In this document: positions 26 to 45,865 of the stretch, piece by piece
Numbering within the stretch: position 1 is the stretch's first letter
How the letters are laid out: each line of letters starts with the position of its first letter
DNA from: Escherichia phage mEp460_ev081
Strand: one strand, 5' to 3'
Length of the DNA stretch: 45,865 nt
Sequence record: LR597641
The notes under the pieces: generated by a model
What the model was told of the DNA's origin: nothing
Databases searched by the model: none
What the model saw: the letters and a program-made list of their open reading frames with translations, nothing else
Translations under genes and position numbers: made by a program

Positions 26-520
26 ATGGATCGAGAGTTAAAAAATCTGACGCTGAATATCAGTCAATTGGCGGCACTGTCAGGTGTACATCGCCAGACT
101 GCTGCGGCAAGGCTGCAAAATCTACCCGTTGCAGGGGGGCATGAAAGCAACCTCAAGCTTTATCGGGTGGTTGATATTGTGTCGGCATTTCTGGCATTAC
201 CACCGCCGGTTGCAGAAGGCGAAATGGACGCACATGAGCGCAAAGCCTGGTATCAGTCTGAACGTGAGCGTCTTAAGTTCGAACAGGAAACGGCACAACT
301 CATTCCGGCCAGTGATGTCAGACGGGAGTTTGCCATCTGGGCAAAAGCGGTCGTGCAGGTGCTGGAGACATTACCGGATATTCTTGAACGTGACTGCGGT
401 CTGCAGCCTGCCGCTGTGAGCCGTGTTCAGTCCATTATTGATGATCTGCGCGATCAGGTAGCCCTGCGGGTGACTGAAGCAGGTGCGGATGATGAGGAGG
501 AATTACAGCAGGAGGAGTAA
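26..520 (+). CDS. Terminase small subunit (Nu1/NohQ-like DNA-packaging protein)
   Basis: 164-aa ORF directly upstream of and overlapping (TAATG) the GpA-type large terminase; N-terminal HTH-like segment; lies just downstream of the cos-like site when the window is circularised. Sequence similarity to lambda Nu1 is weak, so the call rests mainly on position. Confidence 0.7.
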   Translation: MDRELKNLTLNISQLAALSGVHRQTAAARLQNLPVAGGHESNLKLYRVVDIVSAFLALPPPVAEGEMDAHERKAWYQSERERLKFEQETAQLIPASDVRREFAIWAKAVVQVLETLPDILERDCGLQPAAVSRVQSIIDDLRDQVALRVTEAGADDEEELQQEE

Positions 521-2622
521 TGCTGAATCAGGAAACCGCAAAGGCAGCACGAACCGATTCAGGTTATATCCTTCGCGCACCGAGACGAATGCGGGTTGCT
601 GATGCCGTTGCTCAGTATATGCGGGTGCCCATGGGGGCAGGGAACTCAGTCCCATGGGATCCGCTGGTGGCACCGTATGTTATTGAGCCTATGAACTGCC
701 TGGCCTCGCGTGAATACGACGCAGTGATATTTGTTGGCCCGGCACGAACCGGCAAGACTATCGGCCTGATTGACGGCTGGGTGATTTACAACGTGATTTG
801 CGATCCTGCTGATATGCTGATCATTCAGATGACGGAGGAAAAAGCCCGCGAACACTCCAAAAAACGACTCGCCAGAACGTTTCGCGTCAGCCCGGAAGTG
901 GTCAGTCGCCTGAGTCCGAACAAAAATGACAACAACGTTTATGACAGAACATTCCTTGCTGGCAACTACCTGAAAATCGGCTGGCCGTCAGTCAATATCA
1001 TGTCTTCATCAGATTATAAATGCGTGGCGCTGACGGATTATGACCGTTTTCCGGAAGATATTGATGGTGAGGGGGATGCCTTCTCTCTTGCCTCAAAACG
1101 TACCACCACATTTATGTCCAGTGGTATGACGCTGGTGGAGAGTTCCCCCGGCAGGGATGTGAAGGATGTGAAATGGCGACGGACTTCACCGCATGAGGCT
1201 CCACCAACCACGGGGATCCTGTCGCTCTATAACCGTGGCGATCGCCGTCGCTGGTACTGGCCCTGTCCACACTGTGGTGAGTATTTTCAGCCCTGCGGCG
1301 ATGTGGTTGCTGGTTTCCGTGATATTGCCGATCCTGTGCTGGCAAGTGAGGCGGCTTATATTCAGTGTCCTTCCTGTTCAGGACGGATTTTGCCTGAACA
1401 AAAACGCGAGCTGAACGGACGTGGGGTCTGGTTACGGGATGGTGAATCCATCAATGCAGATGGCAGTCGTTATGGTGATCCCCGGCGTTCACGTATTGCG
1501 TCATTCTGGATGGAGGGTCCGGCAGCTGCTTATCAGACACTCTCGCAACTCGTTTACAAACTGCTTACTGCAGAACAGGAATACGAGACAACCGGAAGTG
1601 AAGAGACACTCAAGACGGTTATCAATACCGACTGGGGATTACCTTATCTTCCCCGCGCCAGCATGGAGCAACGAAAAAGTGAATTGCTTGAGCAGCGGGC
1701 AGAGCCAGTTCCTTCCCGCAGTGTGCCGGATGGCGTTAATTTCCTTGTGGCGACAGTGGATGTGCAGGCGGGACGTCATCGCCGTTTTGTGGTTCAGGTA
1801 ACGGGCTATGGCAGCCGTGGCGAACGCTGGATTATTGATCGTTACAACATCACGCAGTCATTGCGCGGTGACAGCGACGGGGAGAGCCAGCGAATTGATC
1901 CGGCCAGCTATCCGGAAGACTGGGATGTCCTGCTGACGGATGTTTTTCATAAAAGCTGGCCGCTGGCCTCCGACCCTTCTCAACAAATGCGACTGATGGC
2001 AATGGCGGTGGACTCCGGCGGTGAAGACGGGGTCACTGATAATGCCTATAAATTCTGGCGTCGTTGCCGTCGTGATGGCCTTGGTAAACGTATTTACCTG
2101 TTTAAGGGCGACAGCATCCGGCGAGCAAAACTGATCACCCGTACATTCCCTGATAACACCGGACGAACGGGCCGACGGGCGCAGGCCGCAGGTGATGTGC
2201 CGCTCTGGCTTCTTCAGACGGATGCCCTGAAAGACCGGGTGAATAACGCGTTATGGCGTGACTCGCTAGGTCCCGGCTATGTGCATTTCCCTGACTGGCT
2301 GGGGAGCTGGTTTTACGACGAACTGACGTATGAAGAGCGGAGCAGTGACGGGAAATGGAGTAAGCCGGGTCGCGGTGCCAACGAAGCTTTTGACCTGATG
2401 GTGTATGCCGAGGCTCTGGTCATTCTGCATGGATACGAAAAGATCCGCTGGCCGGATGCACCGGAGTGGGCGAGCCGGGAAACCTGGCTGGAGTGTGTCC
2501 CGGACAGTACCGAACCGTCACCCTCACCGGAACCGGTACCCACGCCTGTTAAAAAACAAAAACGGAAGAAAACAGTAACTGACGATGTTAACCCCTGGCT
2601 GACTTCCGGAGGATGGTTATGA
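520..2622 (+). CDS. Terminase large subunit (lambda GpA family)
   Basis: 700-aa ORF with a Walker-A-like GPARTGKT motif and Cys-rich zinc-ribbon-like segment (CPHCGEYF...CPSCSG), typical of GpA-type terminases; position after the small subunit. Confidence 0.9.
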   Translation: MLNQETAKAARTDSGYILRAPRRMRVADAVAQYMRVPMGAGNSVPWDPLVAPYVIEPMNCLASREYDAVIFVGPARTGKTIGLIDGWVIYNVICDPADMLIIQMTEEKAREHSKKRLARTFRVSPEVVSRLSPNKNDNNVYDRTFLAGNYLKIGWPSVNIMSSSDYKCVALTDYDRFPEDIDGEGDAFSLASKRTTTFMSSGMTLVESSPGRDVKDVKWRRTSPHEAPPTTGILSLYNRGDRRRWYWPCPHCGEYFQPCGDVVAGFRDIADPVLASEAAYIQCPSCSGRILPEQKRELNGRGVWLRDGESINADGSRYGDPRRSRIASFWMEGPAAAYQTLSQLVYKLLTAEQEYETTGSEETLKTVINTDWGLPYLPRASMEQRKSELLEQRAEPVPSRSVPDGVNFLVATVDVQAGRHRRFVVQVTGYGSRGERWIIDRYNITQSLRGDSDGESQRIDPASYPEDWDVLLTDVFHKSWPLASDPSQQMRLMAMAVDSGGEDGVTDNAYKFWRRCRRDGLGKRIYLFKGDSIRRAKLITRTFPDNTGRTGRRAQAAGDVPLWLLQTDALKDRVNNALWRDSLGPGYVHFPDWLGSWFYDELTYEERSSDGKWSKPGRGANEAFDLMVYAEALVILHGYEKIRWPDAPEWASRETWLECVPDSTEPSPSPEPVPTPVKKQKRKKTVTDDVNPWLTSGGWL

Positions 2623-22163: not shown

Positions 22164-22738
22164 TGGCATTCAGAATGAGTGAACAACCACGGACCATAAA
22201 AATTTATAATCTGCTGGCCGGAACTAATGAATTTATTGGTGAAGGTGATGCATATATTCCGCCTCATACAGGTCTGCCAGCAAACAGTACCGATATTGCA
22301 CCGCCAGATATTCCGGCTGGCTTCGTGGCTGTTTTCAACAGTGATGAGTCATCGTGGCATCTCGTTGAAGATCATCGGGGTAAAACGGTTTATGACGTGG
22401 CTTCCGGCGACGCGTTATTTATTTCTGAACTCGGTCCGTTACCGGAAAATGTTACCTGGTTATCGCCGGAAGGGGAGTTTCAGAAGTGGAACGGCACAGC
22501 CTGGGTGAAGGATACGGAAGCAGAAAAACTGTTCCGGATCCGGGAGGCGGAAGAAACAAAAAACAACCTGATGCAGGTAGCCAGTGAGCATATTGCGCCG
22601 CTTCAGGATGCTGCAGATCTGGAAATTGCAACGGAGGAAGAAATCTCGTTGCTGGAAGCATGGAAAAAGTATCGGGTATTGCTGAACCGTGTTGATACGT
22701 CAACTGCACAGGATATTGAATGGCCAGCACTGCCGTAG
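22163..22738 (+). CDS. tfa: Tail fiber assembly protein Tfa
   Basis: 191 aa; start overlaps the stf stop; conserved Tfa-like C-terminus ([29 protein letters not shown]). Confidence 0.9.
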
Positions 22739-23976: not shown

Positions 23977-24808
23977 GAAGATATTCCTTAAAATATTATT
24001 GATTTTCATTGCGATATTGTATGTCTGATTCAGGATATGTTGACTTATACATCGGTTTTGTCTGGGTTATTGGATATGCCAATCCCTAATTTTATTAGGG
24101 CATGACTAAAAATGCTGAATATGATAAGGAGAGATGTGATTATCAGTATGCTGTTCATATAGCCTCGAATTAGTAATGTGTTATATATGATATAGTTGAC
24201 AATTTTTATCTTGGGTGTTCTTAAAGTTCGTAGATAAACATTGTCGTTTCAGGTATACAGGAATGCTAACAGGTGGCAGCAAAAATCAGGCGGTTTATGG
24301 CGCAAGCTGAAGCGGCAACTGTAAACTATCTTATGCAGAGACTCTACACGGATTGGGTTTAAAAGTATACATAGATAACAGTTTTTATCTGAAAAAGAAA
24401 AATATCAAGGTGATATAGCCTATATGCCTTTGATGCGGAGGAATGAATGTGATGGGAGTGATGTATCTGAATAGTTGAAAAACCGCAGACACGCCTTATG
24501 CAAGAACGTGCTGCGGTTGGCTGGTAAATTTTTCGATAGTGTGAGTATTGAATGATTTCCAGCCGTTCTTGATTTTACGCATAAATCCATGAAAAAACTA
24601 CTTATCTGTTGGGGAGTTTTTTTTGGGGCATATATGGGACAGAAATAGGCCCCAGATAGACACTGAGATCGAACTTAGGATGCTTTTTAAAAAATGCAAC
24701 TATCTGAAAAAACCTAGAAAACGCCAAGGAAACCACAGGATGGGAAAAAACACCTGTGAATTATGGATTTCAAGAGTCATACGTGTCAACTATTTGATAA
24801 ATATTAAA

Positions 24809-26447: not shown

Positions 26448-28919
26448 TTAAGAATCAGCCTGACTCGGGATCAGTTTTTGCCAGATAGCTGAAACGTATT
26501 TTGCCTGGTAACGGGCGTCATCAAGTGCATTATGGCGCTCACCTTCGAATGGAATAGCCGTTCTGGCATCGAAGTCTATGGCTTTCCCCAGCTCAACGAT
26601 TGTGCGTACATCGCGATCGTTGTAGTAACGCCACGGGCAGGGGATCCCCTGCCGTTCGTATGAACGGCGCAAAATCGTGTTGTCGAAGTTGGCTCCATTT
26701 CCCCAGACATGAACAAAAAATTCACCGGAGTTTTCGTCGATAAATTCCCGCAATTGTAACAGTGCATCATCTAACGGGATTTCATCGGTCATAATGGCAG
26801 ATTGCGCTTCGCGTGATTGTTTAAGCCACCATTTAATGGTGTCCCGATCAATGACTCCGCCAGCAGTTTCCAGATCGATAGTCTTACTAAATTCCGGTCC
26901 CATATCTCCGGTTTGCGGATCGAAAAATATTGCACCTATTGAGATAATCGGGGCATCGGGATTTTTTCCCATGGTTTCAAGGTCGATCATCAGATGAATC
27001 CCCGCTCTGCTGGTGGATGTGAGATTATGATGACCGTTCGCCTTAATTAAGGGATCTGACGCCTCGCCAGTTTCACTATCGCTGGCATGATGCTGATTGC
27101 TGCCAGTGTTCTCCTTGTGCTGATGCGCAGAGCCTTCCATTTCCTCCAGATCATTTTTCTGAACTTCAGGCTGATTCTCTCCATCGAATATTTCCTGGTA
27201 TGTTGCGTCACCCATCACCGCACCACAATCAGGGCAGTTGCCGCCACCGCTCTGACCGCAGGCGGTGCAGATCTTTTCCGGTTCCTGTTGCACTACTGGT
27301 TCAGGTTGTTTCGTTTCTGGCTCGTTTTGTTGCGTATTTGGGCTGTTTTGTTCCGCTTTCTGGTCGTTCTGTTCCGTTTCTTGCTGGTTCTGGTTCACAG
27401 AATCGCGGGTCTGGATCCCCTTAATCCATTTCGGATCATTCGGGTCGCTAATCCCTTCAACAAATTCACCACGTGATACTGCAAGCAGTTCATCGGCGTC
27501 AGGCTGGCTGATATTGGCTGCCTGCATAATTTTGTTTACTTCGTCAGCGGTAACTTTTACTGACCCTGGTTGTGCGGTCGTGTCAGATGCACCAGTATTT
27601 TGTTGTGAACCTGAGTATGTACCGTTTTTGCGGGCGAAATATTCTTCTTTCGTGATTTCAGTAGCCCCAGCAGACAGCGCCTTATCCAGACCAGAAAGTT
27701 TATTTGCGCGACCGTATTTTTCGCCATCCTTGTCGGTGAAGAGGAAGTAGAACGGCCCCTCACGTTCTACAGATGGTTCGACTTCCACTTTGCATTCGGT
27801 TTTTTCGTTGTCTGGAATTGCCGTTTCCACTGCATCAGTTTCTGGTACTGGCGACGAGAGAGTATCAGTTGCGCTCTGATTTGTTCCTTCATCTTCAAAC
27901 ACGCCCTTTGTAGTCAGGTATTCAGTAATGTATTTGTTCAGTGCCACAGGGTCTTTGTGAATGTCGATCGGACGTTCACGGACAAGGCCAAAAATAGTCT
28001 GGCGGTCGTAGCGAAGGGCATCAGGCTGTTTGCGCATTGATGCCGAGATACGCTTCCAGTCTTCGCGGTCGTTGTCGATAACTTCATTTTTTGCCCAGCG
28101 ATGGATGCTGCCGTCAATGTTTCCGGCATCCACATCACCAGGCCAGAGAGCGTAGGCCAGTTCGTCATCCAGTGTTTTCCATGTCTGCTTGTATTCGCGA
28201 TGAATGGCAGCAATGACCGGGTTGATTTTTCCTGTTGAATTTTCAGTGTGCTGTTGATTGGCTCTGGCGCGGGCGAGATCAACAACAGACGTGTATTTTC
28301 CGGCTTCCTTGCGTTCACCTTCGCGACGTTTTTTCCAGATGCGCATCTCTGCCTGAATTTCGGGCCATTTGGCACCAGGCTTACATTTATGCTTAACCCA
28401 CCCGATGGCATGCAGCTTAAGCTCCGGATACATAGCGTTAACTTCTGGCATTTTCATCAACGCTTCAACGATATGGCCGTCGAATGTTGCCATGTCTTCC
28501 TGCAACAATTCCTGTGCGCTAATCACCATATCAACAGTGATGTTTTCACATGTGTCGAACTTAACCATGACAGCGTTCTGTACTTCAGGGGCTAGGTTGT
28601 CAAAAGTGACGTTCATCGGATCGGATTCAGTCTCGACCGGGACAAAGGAAGCAGACGCCTCATCCCAGCGGTTTTCCTGCATATATTCAGCATCCCAGGA
28701 ATCGAGGGCAGGGCGGGGTATACCGGGTTTATCCTCGCAAACAAGAAATTTATAAGCGCAGTCCTGAGCAGCCGGATAATGTTCCAGGAATTGCCAGTGA
28801 AATTTTGCGCGGGCGCGACGTTCATCACCGGCTTCAATGGCAGTGGCTACAGCGACGGCACCTTCTTCCTTTATTGCCTGTTCGTCCGGAATGGCGGCGC
28901 AAATAAAGACTTTACTCAT
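26448..28919 (-). CDS. Large exonuclease-family protein with C-terminal DEDDh (DnaQ-like) 3'-5' exonuclease domain
   Basis: 823 aa; C-terminal IDLETMG...WGNGANFD...HNALDDARY matches the Exo I/II/III motifs of DnaQ-like exonucleases; central CTACG...CPDCG zinc-ribbon-like motif and a Q/N/E-rich low-complexity linker. Confidence 0.75.
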   Translation of the reverse strand: MSKVFICAAIPDEQAIKEEGAVAVATAIEAGDERRARAKFHWQFLEHYPAAQDCAYKFLVCEDKPGIPRPALDSWDAEYMQENRWDEASASFVPVETESDPMNVTFDNLAPEVQNAVMVKFDTCENITVDMVISAQELLQEDMATFDGHIVEALMKMPEVNAMYPELKLHAIGWVKHKCKPGAKWPEIQAEMRIWKKRREGERKEAGKYTSVVDLARARANQQHTENSTGKINPVIAAIHREYKQTWKTLDDELAYALWPGDVDAGNIDGSIHRWAKNEVIDNDREDWKRISASMRKQPDALRYDRQTIFGLVRERPIDIHKDPVALNKYITEYLTTKGVFEDEGTNQSATDTLSSPVPETDAVETAIPDNEKTECKVEVEPSVEREGPFYFLFTDKDGEKYGRANKLSGLDKALSAGATEITKEEYFARKNGTYSGSQQNTGASDTTAQPGSVKVTADEVNKIMQAANISQPDADELLAVSRGEFVEGISDPNDPKWIKGIQTRDSVNQNQQETEQNDQKAEQNSPNTQQNEPETKQPEPVVQQEPEKICTACGQSGGGNCPDCGAVMGDATYQEIFDGENQPEVQKNDLEEMEGSAHQHKENTGSNQHHASDSETGEASDPLIKANGHHNLTSTSRAGIHLMIDLETMGKNPDAPIISIGAIFFDPQTGDMGPEFSKTIDLETAGGVIDRDTIKWWLKQSREAQSAIMTDEIPLDDALLQLREFIDENSGEFFVHVWGNGANFDNTILRRSYERQGIPCPWRYYNDRDVRTIVELGKAIDFDARTAIPFEGERHNALDDARYQAKYVSAIWQKLIPSQADS

Positions 28920-29557: not shown

Positions 29558-29615
29558 AAAAAGGGCGGCAGAGCAGTCACGGAGTAAAACTGATACCGCC
29601 AAACGTCACCAGAAA
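29558..29615 (-). ncRNA. dicF: DicF small regulatory RNA
   Basis: Reverse complement reads TTTCTGGTGACGTTTGGCGGTATCAGTTTTACTCCGTGACTGCTCTGCCGCCCTTTTT, matching E. coli DicF (ftsZ-targeting sRNA) with its intrinsic terminator; located between the ydfBC-like gene and dicB as in Qin. Confidence 0.8.
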
Positions 29616-35703: not shown

Positions 35704-35914
35704 TTTCACATTGGCGAGGTAACGGTAGTTAAGTAGAATGGCTGCGGGTGCTTGAGGCTATCTGCCTCGGGCATGAACACCAACGGCAGATAGAGAAAAG
35801 CCCCAGTTAACATTACGCGTCCTGCAAGACGCTTAACATTAATCTGAGGCCAATTTCATGCTAGACACATGTAGGTTAGCCTCTTACGTGCCGAAAGGCA
35901 AGGAGAAGCAGGCT

Positions 35915-36070
35915 ATGAAGCAGCAAAAGGCGATGTTAATCGCCCTGATCGTCATCTGTTTAACCGTCATAGTGACGGCACTGGTAACGAGGAAAGACCT
36001 CTGCGAGGTACGAATCCGAACCGGGCAGACGGAGGTCGCTGTCTTCACAGCTTACGAACCTGAGGAGTAA
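35915..36070 (+). CDS. hok: Hok/Gef-family type I toxin (HokD/RelF-like)
   Basis: 51 aa MKQQKAMLIALIVICLTVIVTALVTRKDLCEVRIRTGQTEVAVFTAYEPEE; the in-frame upstream extension from 35858 sits in the mok position; 3' fold-back region and terminator follow. Confidence 0.9.
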   Translation: MKQQKAMLIALIVICLTVIVTALVTRKDLCEVRIRTGQTEVAVFTAYEPEE

Positions 36071-39282: not shown

Positions 39283-39358
39283 GGCCCTTTAGCTCAGTGG
39301 TGAGAGCGAGCGACTCATAATCGCCAGGTCGCTGGTTCAAATCCAGCAAGGGCCACCA
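39283..39358 (+). tRNA. tRNA with CAU anticodon (Met, or Ile2 if lysidine-modified; ileZ-like)
   Basis: 76-nt cloverleaf: acceptor GGCCCTT/AAGGGCC, D-arm AGCTCAGTGG, anticodon loop CTCATAA, T-arm GGTTCAAATCC, 3' CCA. Confidence 0.85.
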
Positions 39359-39458: not shown

Positions 39459-39535
39459 GCGTTGTTAGCTCAGCCGGACAGAGCAATTGCCTTCTAAGCA
39501 ATCGGTCACTGGTTCGAATCCAGTACAGCGCGCCA
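39459..39535 (+). tRNA. tRNA-Arg (UCU anticodon; argN/argO-like)
   Basis: 77-nt cloverleaf: acceptor GCGTTGT/ACAGCGC, anticodon loop CTTCTAA, T-arm GGTTCGAATCC, 3' CCA. Confidence 0.85.
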
Positions 39536-39999: not shown

Positions 40000-40473
40000 A
40001 TACATATCTGGATTATCACCTGTTACGGTAAAAAGTGATTGCTTACTGTTTTTGTGAATGGCATTGCAGCAGCCGGATAATGTCAGTGCTGGCTGACGGT
40101 GTGCTGGTGGCGGGTGTGGTGGTTGTTGCTTTCCCGTTGCTGAAAAAGAAAACGCCAGACTGTTAGCCGGGTATCAGTTAGCGGGAGAAATTTTTAAATA
40201 CTTCACAATTCAGGCGGTTGACTGTTCTCTGGTTTGCGGGGAGTTTGTTAAAAGAAACTGGCATGGTGAATCCCCCTGTGCGGAGGGGCAATCAGCGAGT
40301 AGGTATATGGGATAATCGCGGATTCAGGTGCTGGTACTGAATTCACCGGGAGGCACCCGGCACCATGCACTTCAATAGATTCTCTCCACATTATGGATAT
40401 TCTTTCAGAATATCCCACGCAGACTTTGTGTAAATGTTAACAAATGTGCGTTTTATTTGATCTGATTCGCTGT

Positions 40474-43314: not shown

Positions 43315-43677
43315 ATTAATATTAAATCGGATTATTTTTAGCGCTGAATGTGAAATTTAAATAAAAAGGACTCTTCCATGAGTCAAAATCCTTGAAATCT
43401 TAAGGGTAAGATAAAAGGTCATTAGACAGAATGACACGTTTTATTAATAAATAAAGCTATTGTTTCATTCGTGTGTTTTTCTTTACAAAAGTAATCCTTG
43501 CTATGGTTGGTTAATCATGCGTTAATGGTGTTCTGGTTTGTTACAAAATTATCTGAAGCAGTCATTGTTATAATTTTATTATTTGTACCTCTTGAGATTT
43601 CCTTGTTGGTTTTTCTCTCTGATATTTTTTTTCGGACCATTCTGCCCAAGGGCTAACTTCTTCAAAAGGTAATAATG

Positions 43678-43890
43678 ATGTCTAACAAAATGACTGGTTT
43701 AGTGAAATGGTTTAACCCTGAAAAAGGTTTTGGTTTCATCACGCCGAAAGATGGTAGCAAAGATGTGTTTGTGCATTTCTCAGCTATTCAGAGCAACGAT
43801 TTCAAAACGTTAACTGAGAATCAGGAAGTCGAATTTGGTATTGAGAACGGACCTAAAGGCCCTGCAGCTGTTCATGTAGTGGCACTTTGA
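43678..43890 (+). CDS. Cold-shock protein (CspA family; CspI/CspB-like)
   Basis: 70 aa with RNP motifs (KGFGFI, VFVHF); long AT-rich 5' UTR typical of csp genes. Confidence 0.9.
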
Positions 43891-44093
43891 GGTAGAAAAT
43901 ATTACAAACCATATTCACTTTAGATGCCCGTGTTGCCATGGTTCTCAGTATAGAACATCATCTTTTGATGTTTCTGACAGAAATCCTTTCGGGGCAAAAT
44001 GTATCTTTTGTAAATCAATGATGATTACATTTGATAATATTTCACAATACTTAAATGTTAGCCATCTGTCGTTAGATTTAAGAAAGTGAAAAT

Positions 44094-45240: not shown

Positions 45241-45603
45241 TCACCATAACTGCTAACCATTCTGACCATTTCACAAGTGACAGAGTCAATATCGTATTCT
45301 GTCACTGTAAGGCTAATACAGTACTGCAATTCAACTACAGCAATGCCTCGTATTTAGGTGAATTTACAATATCGTCCAGTTCGGATGCCGGCTGCATTTC
45401 TGAAGATAAGGCATTTCGGTTCGCGTATTTTCCCCTCATGCTCGTCAGTCCTGCGCGTAGTAAGAAACAGGACACTCACACTAATTTGTGTGGGCATGCT
45501 GTGATGTCCTTCTGAATTATCCCCATGCCATTATGTAACGCTCTGTTTCAGATGCTCGTCACGGTTGTCAGGCTGTCGGGTCCTCCCAGTGGGGGTCCCT
45601 GCC

Positions 45604-45623
45604 ACGGGGCGGGAGCGTCGCGG
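45604..45623. other. Putative cohesive-end site (cosN-like)
   Basis: ACGGGGCGGGAGCGTCGCGG followed by aaaaaggctagtttttgaaatttcatccg parallels the lambda cos region as recalled (ACGGGGCGGCGACCTCGCGG gttttcgctatttatgaaaattttccgg); the small terminase gene lies about 270 bp downstream across the window junction. Confidence 0.5.
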
Positions 45624-45628
45624 AAAAA

Positions 45629-45824
45629 GGCTAGTTTTTGAAATTTCATCCGTCATCACCACTACTGTAATAGATTGATATTACAGTATTTTTATTTTTG
45701 TGGTGTCGATTTTGATTGTTTTTTGTGGCTAGTTTTTGAAATTTCATCCGTCATCACCACTACTGTAATAGATTGATATTACAGTATTTTTATTTTTGTG
45801 GTGTCGATTTTGATTGTTTTTTGT
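45629..45824. repeat. Perfect tandem direct repeat (2 x 98 bp) in the cosB position, each unit containing a 10-bp-arm palindrome
   Basis: Unit ggctagtttttgaaatttcatccgtcatcaccactactgtaatagattgatattacagtatttttatttttgtggtgtcgattttgattgttttttgt occurs twice in tandem; each contains TACTGTAATA-gattga-TATTACAGTA. Confidence 0.85.
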
Positions 45825-45865
45825 TCATCACTAACACCGTTTGCCTAAAGTCGTTCGCAAGATGC

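Follow-up and report, generated by a model that had tools for sequence, protein, structure and literature searches.

The sequence record LR597641 of Escherichia phage mEp460_ev081 holds a perfect 98-bp tandem repeat beside a lambda-like cos nicking site. Our analysis of the whole stretch of 45,865 nt, called the window below, suggests that the extra copy is probably an untrimmed assembly overlap which became internal, and not phage DNA. Should this be so, the record needs correction to a true genome length of 45,767 bp. Moreover, the two-copy record could mislead the definition of cos and cosB in a common E. coli prophage group.

The cos region and the surrounding prophage

By its sequence, the region is a lambda-like cos site of a lambdoid prophage, of a kind that is already known. 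The initial annotation had placed a lambda-like cosN with its flanks about 270 bp upstream of the small terminase gene, with a cohesive end that differs from lambda at about four positions, and our comparison agrees with it. The 12-mer GGGCGGGAGCGT and the lambda sequence GGGCGGCGACCT are equal at 8 of 12 positions, and the mismatches fall at positions 7, 8, 9 and 11. The flanks ACG/ and /CGCGG (a slash marks a nick) are the same as in lambda, and the CG pairs flanking the nicks are kept. An alignment anchored on the nick gave ACG/GGGCGG....T/CGCGG as common to lambda and the window, and the stretch GCTA.TT.TGAAA.TTT, at about +24..+45, is also common to both (signed positions are counted from the top-strand nick). 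Counted through the circular junction, the ATG of terS (window position 26) comes 272 nt after the 12-mer, which places it at +285; with one unit it would stand at +187. Previous work has shown that the natural variation of lambda-like cohesive ends falls in bp 7-12, that the CG pairs beside the nicks are conserved among them, and that the lambda change C11G is phenotypically silent (PMC4669245).

By analogy with lambda, we infer a top-strand nick at 45606/45607 and a bottom-strand nick at 45618/45619, at which the gpA-type TerL would generate 12-nt 5' ends with the sequence GGGCGGGAGCGT. The GenBank records of cdtI and Tritos open exactly at GGGCGGGAGCGT, and the last base of the Tritos record is the equivalent of window 45606. 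A search of the open literature for experimental end mapping of the 12-mer, mEp460, Tritos or cdtI found none. The same analogy would make the heptamer GGGTCCT the termination signal cosQ. Feiss has described cosQ as a highly conserved 7-bp site with no variation (Feiss 2015, PMC4669245). The heptamer was without variation in 47 distinct cos regions of type A, the type to which the window belongs (see below).

Thus, the reading as a cos site is supported jointly by the lambda-like cosN with its flanks, the position of the heptamer, the IHF consensus, the terS gene with a gpA-type terL, and the starts of the two records. This cos type is widespread and is already in GenBank, where it heads the cdtI and Tritos records; among 5,426 complete E. 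coli genomes, about 2,000 show a match to a part of the cos region. Apart from the repeat, nothing about the site is unusual. Neither an Rfam family nor a sigma-70-like promoter nor a terminator was detected in the region of cos and the repeat. The record of mEp460_4F5 (LR595868.1) starts 5 nt before the cohesive end and reads GGGCGGGAGCG-CGG; compared with all other relatives, 3 nt (TCG) are missing at the right edge of its 12-mer. This gap is probably an end-of-assembly error.

Table 1. Features of the window discussed in the text, with positions counted from its first base.
Feature	Position	Strand	Remarks
terS, small terminase, 164 aa, DUF1441 / phrog_141	26..520	+	Pfam PF07278, E = 3.6e-41
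terL, gpA-type large terminase	520..2622	+	GpA_ATPase, E = 1.7e-71; GpA_nuclease, E = 6.2e-85
attP core	near 24757-24771		window closed circularly across attP
823-aa exonuclease ORF	26448-28919	-	
cosQ-like heptamer GGGTCCT	45578..45584	+	-29..-23 from top-strand nick; lambda -30..-24
cosN cohesive-end sequence GGGCGGGAGCGT	45607..45618	+	single occurrence in the window
98-bp unit, copy 1, native cosB-proximal segment	45629..45726	+	+23..+120; single in relatives
98-bp unit, copy 2, extra, probably untrimmed overlap	45727..45824	+	100% identical to copy 1
Candidate TerS contact TCATCACCAC, R3-like position +47..+56	45653..45662, again 45751-45760	+	position only
Perfect palindrome TACTGTAATA-N6-TATTACAGTA around IHF core	45663..45688 and 45761-45786		10-nt arms
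IHF consensus TATCAATCTATTA (WATCAANNNNTTR), predicted, I1 equivalent, copy 1	45668..45680	-	perfect match
IHF consensus, predicted, copy 2	45766..45778	-	same sequence as copy 1
Candidate inverted partner GTGGTGTCGA, R2-like position +94..+103	45700..45709, again 45798-45807	-	
Candidate R1-like site TCATCACTAA, just beyond the duplication	45825..45834	+	by eye and triple search

The sequence identifies the window as the excised, circularly closed form of a Qin-site (rspB/ydfJ) prophage. The window is lambdoid, and its relatives are mEp460, Ayreon, HannyBb, Tritos and cdtI. The prophages in the complete genomes of E. coli KE48 and 20Ec-P-124 are colinear with window 24757-45726, followed by 45727-45865 and 1-24771, and show 11-13 differences from it over 45.8 kb (99.96-99.98% identity). 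The differences between the window and these nearest prophages are a few point changes and single-base indels. The prophage carries dicB, DicF, hokD/sok, rem, ydfU, cspI, gnsB and pinQ, and is thus related to Qin, the cryptic prophage of K-12, but intact. The TerS protein also matches the profile phrog_141, "terminase small subunit" (E = 2e-73).

Some other elements were observed in the same prophage. Rfam matches at the gathering score were DicF (29563-29614, minus strand), the sok antitoxin (35746-35920, plus strand), STnc100 (40232-40422, plus strand), IS009 (22506-22704, plus strand) and a cspA-type thermoregulator (43520-43936, plus strand). Two phage-borne tRNA genes lie 3' of the Q antiterminator gene, at 39283-39358 and 39459-39535. 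One has the anticodon CAT and is assigned to Met by ARAGORN and, for the equivalent gene, to Ile by PGAP; the other is Arg-TCT. An imperfect tandem repeat of 21 nt in four copies (27306-27389, 74% matches) is located within the exonuclease ORF.

A scan of IMG/VR with a 29-mer of cosN plus flank returned 120 loci. In these loci, three modules (types A, B and C), each with its own TerS, were found behind an identical cosQ-cosN segment. The window and mEp460 are of type A, cdtI, Tritos and HannyBb are of type B, and type C is the third. Modules are exchanged at boundaries about +34..+41 past the nick and, within terL, some 100 nt from its start; in the window the module covers 45640-45865 and 1-619. 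Up to +41, HannyBb shows 99% identity with the window, and from there until about 100 nt into terL it has the other module. The co-variation of module and TerS type is the best evidence for placing the packaging-specificity determinants (cosB) in the duplicated segment and the sequence directly behind it.

The 98-bp repeat and the sites within it

Tandem Repeats Finder reported one array, 45629-45824, with a period of 98, 2.0 copies, 100% matches and no indels. The pair is the only direct repeat of at least 30 nt in the whole 45.9-kb window, and a perfect repeat of 98 bp cannot be a chance match. The initial annotation had described two perfect tandem units of this length, each with a palindrome of 10-bp arms, and we found both as described. 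Its statement that they follow cosN immediately is right in that the repeat adjoins cosN and slightly loose in that 10 nt, CGCGGAAAAA, separate the 12-mer from the start of the repeat. The region reads ...CCACG GGGCGGGAGCGT CGCGGAAAAA and then the copies; the junction of copy 1 with copy 2 reads ...GATTGTTTTTTGT/GGCTAGTTTTTG... (here the slash marks the junction).

The bases flanking the array are unlike the ends of the unit: A precedes 45629 and T stands at 45726, while T stands at 45825 and G at 45727. The array therefore has exactly two copies, with zero microhomology at the junction. It stops 41 nt short of the window end, so that the repeat is internal, and lies wholly within non-coding DNA; its period, 98, is not divisible by 3.

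Each copy contains a short palindrome, TGAAATTTCA (45639-45648 and 45737-45746), as well as the longer one given in Table 1. As a DNA hairpin, the longer palindrome has a folding energy of -6 kcal/mol (z = -4.65). Its arms are largely kept in sequence among relatives, and the variants are without compensation. The unit as a whole folds better than shuffles, which is explained by the palindrome together with the inverted pair CACCAC/GTGGTG. The A+T-rich hairpin, with a 10-bp stem that includes two G-C pairs, is followed by TTTTTATTTTT (45663-45699 and 45761-45797); this arrangement, just 5' of terS, resembles a weak intrinsic terminator and was left unflagged by a consensus scan. In an SOS box, CTG and CAG are spaced by 10. 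A LexA box was considered here and rejected: the half-sites TACTGTA/TACAGTA are similar, yet the CTG...CAG spacing is 16, not 10.

The IHF consensus of copy 1 occupies +62..+74 from the nick, and by analogy with lambda IHF would bend the DNA there. Among 47 distinct relatives, the IHF site varies at N positions only, with TAA and TTGATA fixed. Types B and C have an IHF match at the equivalent place, that of type C with one mismatch. This predicted IHF site is the only well supported site in the unit.

In lambda-like packaging, the small terminase TerS would bind the cosB segment between cosN and terS. We compared the best direct-inverted-direct triple of 10-mers with shuffled sequences, using lambda as the positive control. 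The test recovered R3, R2 and R1 of lambda (28/30, p < 0.005). In the window, of type A, the best triple scored 22/30 (p = 0.64 against shuffles), and no such triple above shuffles was found in types B and C. The sites chosen by eye (TCATCACCAC, inverted TCGACACCAC and TCATCACTAA) were rejected as unsupported on this result, and the lambda control passed. A repeat search likewise reported no R3/R2/R1-type repeats. The match between TCATCACCAC and the inverted site at 45700-45709 (8 of 10 positions) is not above chance, and the candidate GTGGTGTCGA pairs with CACCAC in the unit fold. Thus, of the duplicated terminase and IHF sites that had been proposed for this repeat, the IHF part holds, with one consensus per copy, and the part on terminase sites of the lambda R type does not. 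To speak of duplicated terminase binding sites is plausible in a positional sense only.

Copy number in relatives and origin of the extra copy

The copy number was then examined in other sequences. The junction query was asymmetric, with 87 nt of copy 1 and 26 nt of copy 2. Of the complete E. coli genomes, 192 carry the unit at an identity of at least 95%; all their alignments stop at the end of copy 1, and the junction was crossed in none. It was also found in none of 50,697 phage records, of which the six that matched likewise stop at the end of copy 1. Exact junction strings were absent from IMG/VR, the JGI metagenomes and the GTDB representative genomes.

The lengths around the unit agree with these searches. 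With 45500-45865 as the query, a span of 268 bp (366 minus 98) was found in every genome among the matches listed. Of the type A loci, 59 have the terS start at +187 and one has it at +186; the other three of these 62 loci have a truncated terS ORF with an unreadable start. No exact repeat of at least 25 nt occurs in the 120 cos regions of any type, and the core of the unit was present once in 76 of 76 fetched loci and twice in none. The segment +23..+120 is single-copy in the near-identical KE48 and 20Ec-P-124 prophages and in mEp460. Exact-protein look-ups, with proteins that occur in thousands of assemblies, gave the single-copy spacing at every place returned. The junction is spanned by two 33-aa ORFs, neither of which has a database entry; this is weak evidence, since ORFs of this sort are seldom called.

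These observations favour an assembly artefact. The native site would have a single +23..+120 segment. The ends of a circular contig were probably joined without trimming of their terminal overlap, and re-opening at the conventional mEp460/Ayreon start, 25 nt before terS, would have turned this overlap into an internal tandem repeat. The first base of the window is the first base of the mEp460 and Ayreon records, and the Ayreon genome was deliberately "opened" by its authors to start with the small terminase gene (PMC5764929). The shared start and this convention show that the window was circularised and rotated after assembly.

In favour of the overlap, every independent relative is one-copy, including the prophages with 99.96-99.98% identity, and hundreds of relatives show no natural length polymorphism of the region. 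The lack of microhomology in a sequence that was circularised and re-opened points in the same direction, as does the form of the repeat, which has identical copies, exactly two of them, and is the only long repeat in the window. The record of mEp460_4F5 is likewise irregular at cos. However, perfect identity and uniqueness are predicted by both a young private duplication and an untrimmed overlap.

An artefact of terminal sequences had already been suggested for this repeat. That idea is favoured by the one-copy relatives, but not in the form of a filled-in cohesive end: such a fill-in would double the 12-mer (12 nt), yet the repeat begins at +23. Terminal overlaps of circular contigs are likewise exact, two-copy, about as long as a k-mer or a read, and unique to one assembly. 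They are normally terminal, whereas the repeat is internal here, and 98 is not among the values of k that are standard in SPAdes. Overlaps from SPAdes usually measure 55, 77, 99 or 127, and a length of 98 would be k-1 at k = 99 only where the assembler spells k-mer nodes. Thus, the length of the repeat gives little support to an artefact. In addition, a random contig break has a chance of less than 1% of falling within about 200 bp of cos. Since cos and the overlap are within about 120 bp of each other, the artefact route needs contig ends that are tied to virion ends, which is plausible for virion DNA.

It is rather unlikely, in our estimate, that this phage physically has the 98-bp duplication, as a natural variant in which two IHF-site modules stand in tandem between cosN and terS. 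If it did, the variant would offer a ready-made test of how the copy number and spacing of cosB affect terminase assembly at a cos with a DUF1441 TerS and without R repeats of the lambda type. A real duplication would probably be tolerated, since copy 1 keeps the native spacing of cosN to cosB and copy 2 the native relation to terS.

One such reading is a recent, private and nearly neutral tandem duplication of +23..+120 in the phage or its parent lysogen, which we consider possible but unlikely. It could have arisen by illegitimate recombination or template switching, giving the order cosN, IHF module, IHF module, terS. Neutrality would follow from the native spacing of copy 1 to cosN and from a late transcript that reads through to terS. 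The non-coding location tolerates an insertion of 98 bp, and copy 1 preserves the distance from cosN to cosB, which is important in lambda (PMC4669245). Small private changes do occur in this lineage, as between the window and its nearest prophages, and perfect identity of the copies is expected if the duplication is young. However, the junction was met in none of the 192 genomes, the 120 cos regions, the 50,697 phage records or the three contig collections, and no length polymorphism of the region was seen in nature. A junction with zero microhomology is also unusual for slippage. An unequal exchange in which the R3-like site crosses over with the R1-like site was rejected as a route. It would reverse an event that Feiss proposed for the origin of N15, but its period would be 74 bp, not 98, and the junction is without homology.

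It is very improbable that the duplication is both real and selected, with a second IHF/TerS-binding module that improves the assembly of terminase or the start of packaging, as when IHF is low or the host is new: the IHF consensus is complete in each copy, which also has the inverted pair CACCAC/GTGGTG, and the segment co-varies with TerS across the three cos types and so would hold specificity determinants, but there are no significant R-site repeats to double, such an advantage should recur in hundreds of related prophages and never does, and all points against a neutral duplication apply equally. An untrimmed overlap is therefore the origin that we prefer for the extra copy.

Comparison with known systems

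The cos of lambda also has a 12-nt G+C-rich cohesive end, a GGGTCCT heptamer one base off in position, an IHF site between cosN and terS, and a gpA-type TerL. The terS start at +187 with one copy compares with +191 for lambda Nu1. The small terminase of lambda is Nu1, whereas that of the window belongs to DUF1441 and not to Pfam Phage_Nu1, and BLASTP of the window TerS against lambda Nu1 showed no similarity. Weak profile matches were reciprocal (window TerS to phrog_57, E = 1e-9; Nu1 to phrog_141, E = 6e-8), which would make the window TerS at most a distant relative of Nu1. Lambda has the R3/R2/R1 triple with R2 inverted, whereas the window is without a detectable triple under the same test.

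Among the closer phages, cdtI (AB285204), Tritos (OV696610), HannyBb, mEp460 (JQ182728), Ayreon and mEp460_4F5 have an identical cosQ-cosN segment, and unlike the window each has one +23..+120 copy. The cosB type and terS of mEp460, Ayreon and mEp460_4F5 are common with the window, whereas in cdtI, Tritos and HannyBb the sequence from +34 on is that of the type B module, with another cosB and terS.

The cohesive end of Gifsy-1 differs from that of lambda at positions 8, 9 and 11, and that of N15 at 9 and 12 (PMC4669245). In both, the variation is likewise confined to the right half of the 12-mer, and relative to Gifsy-1, known here from the published description, the window has one added change at position 7. 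As no type has lambda-style R repeats, the recognition of DNA by TerS is a tractable question for the DUF1441 terminases. The three cosB/terS modules recall the different packaging specificities of lambda and phage 21.
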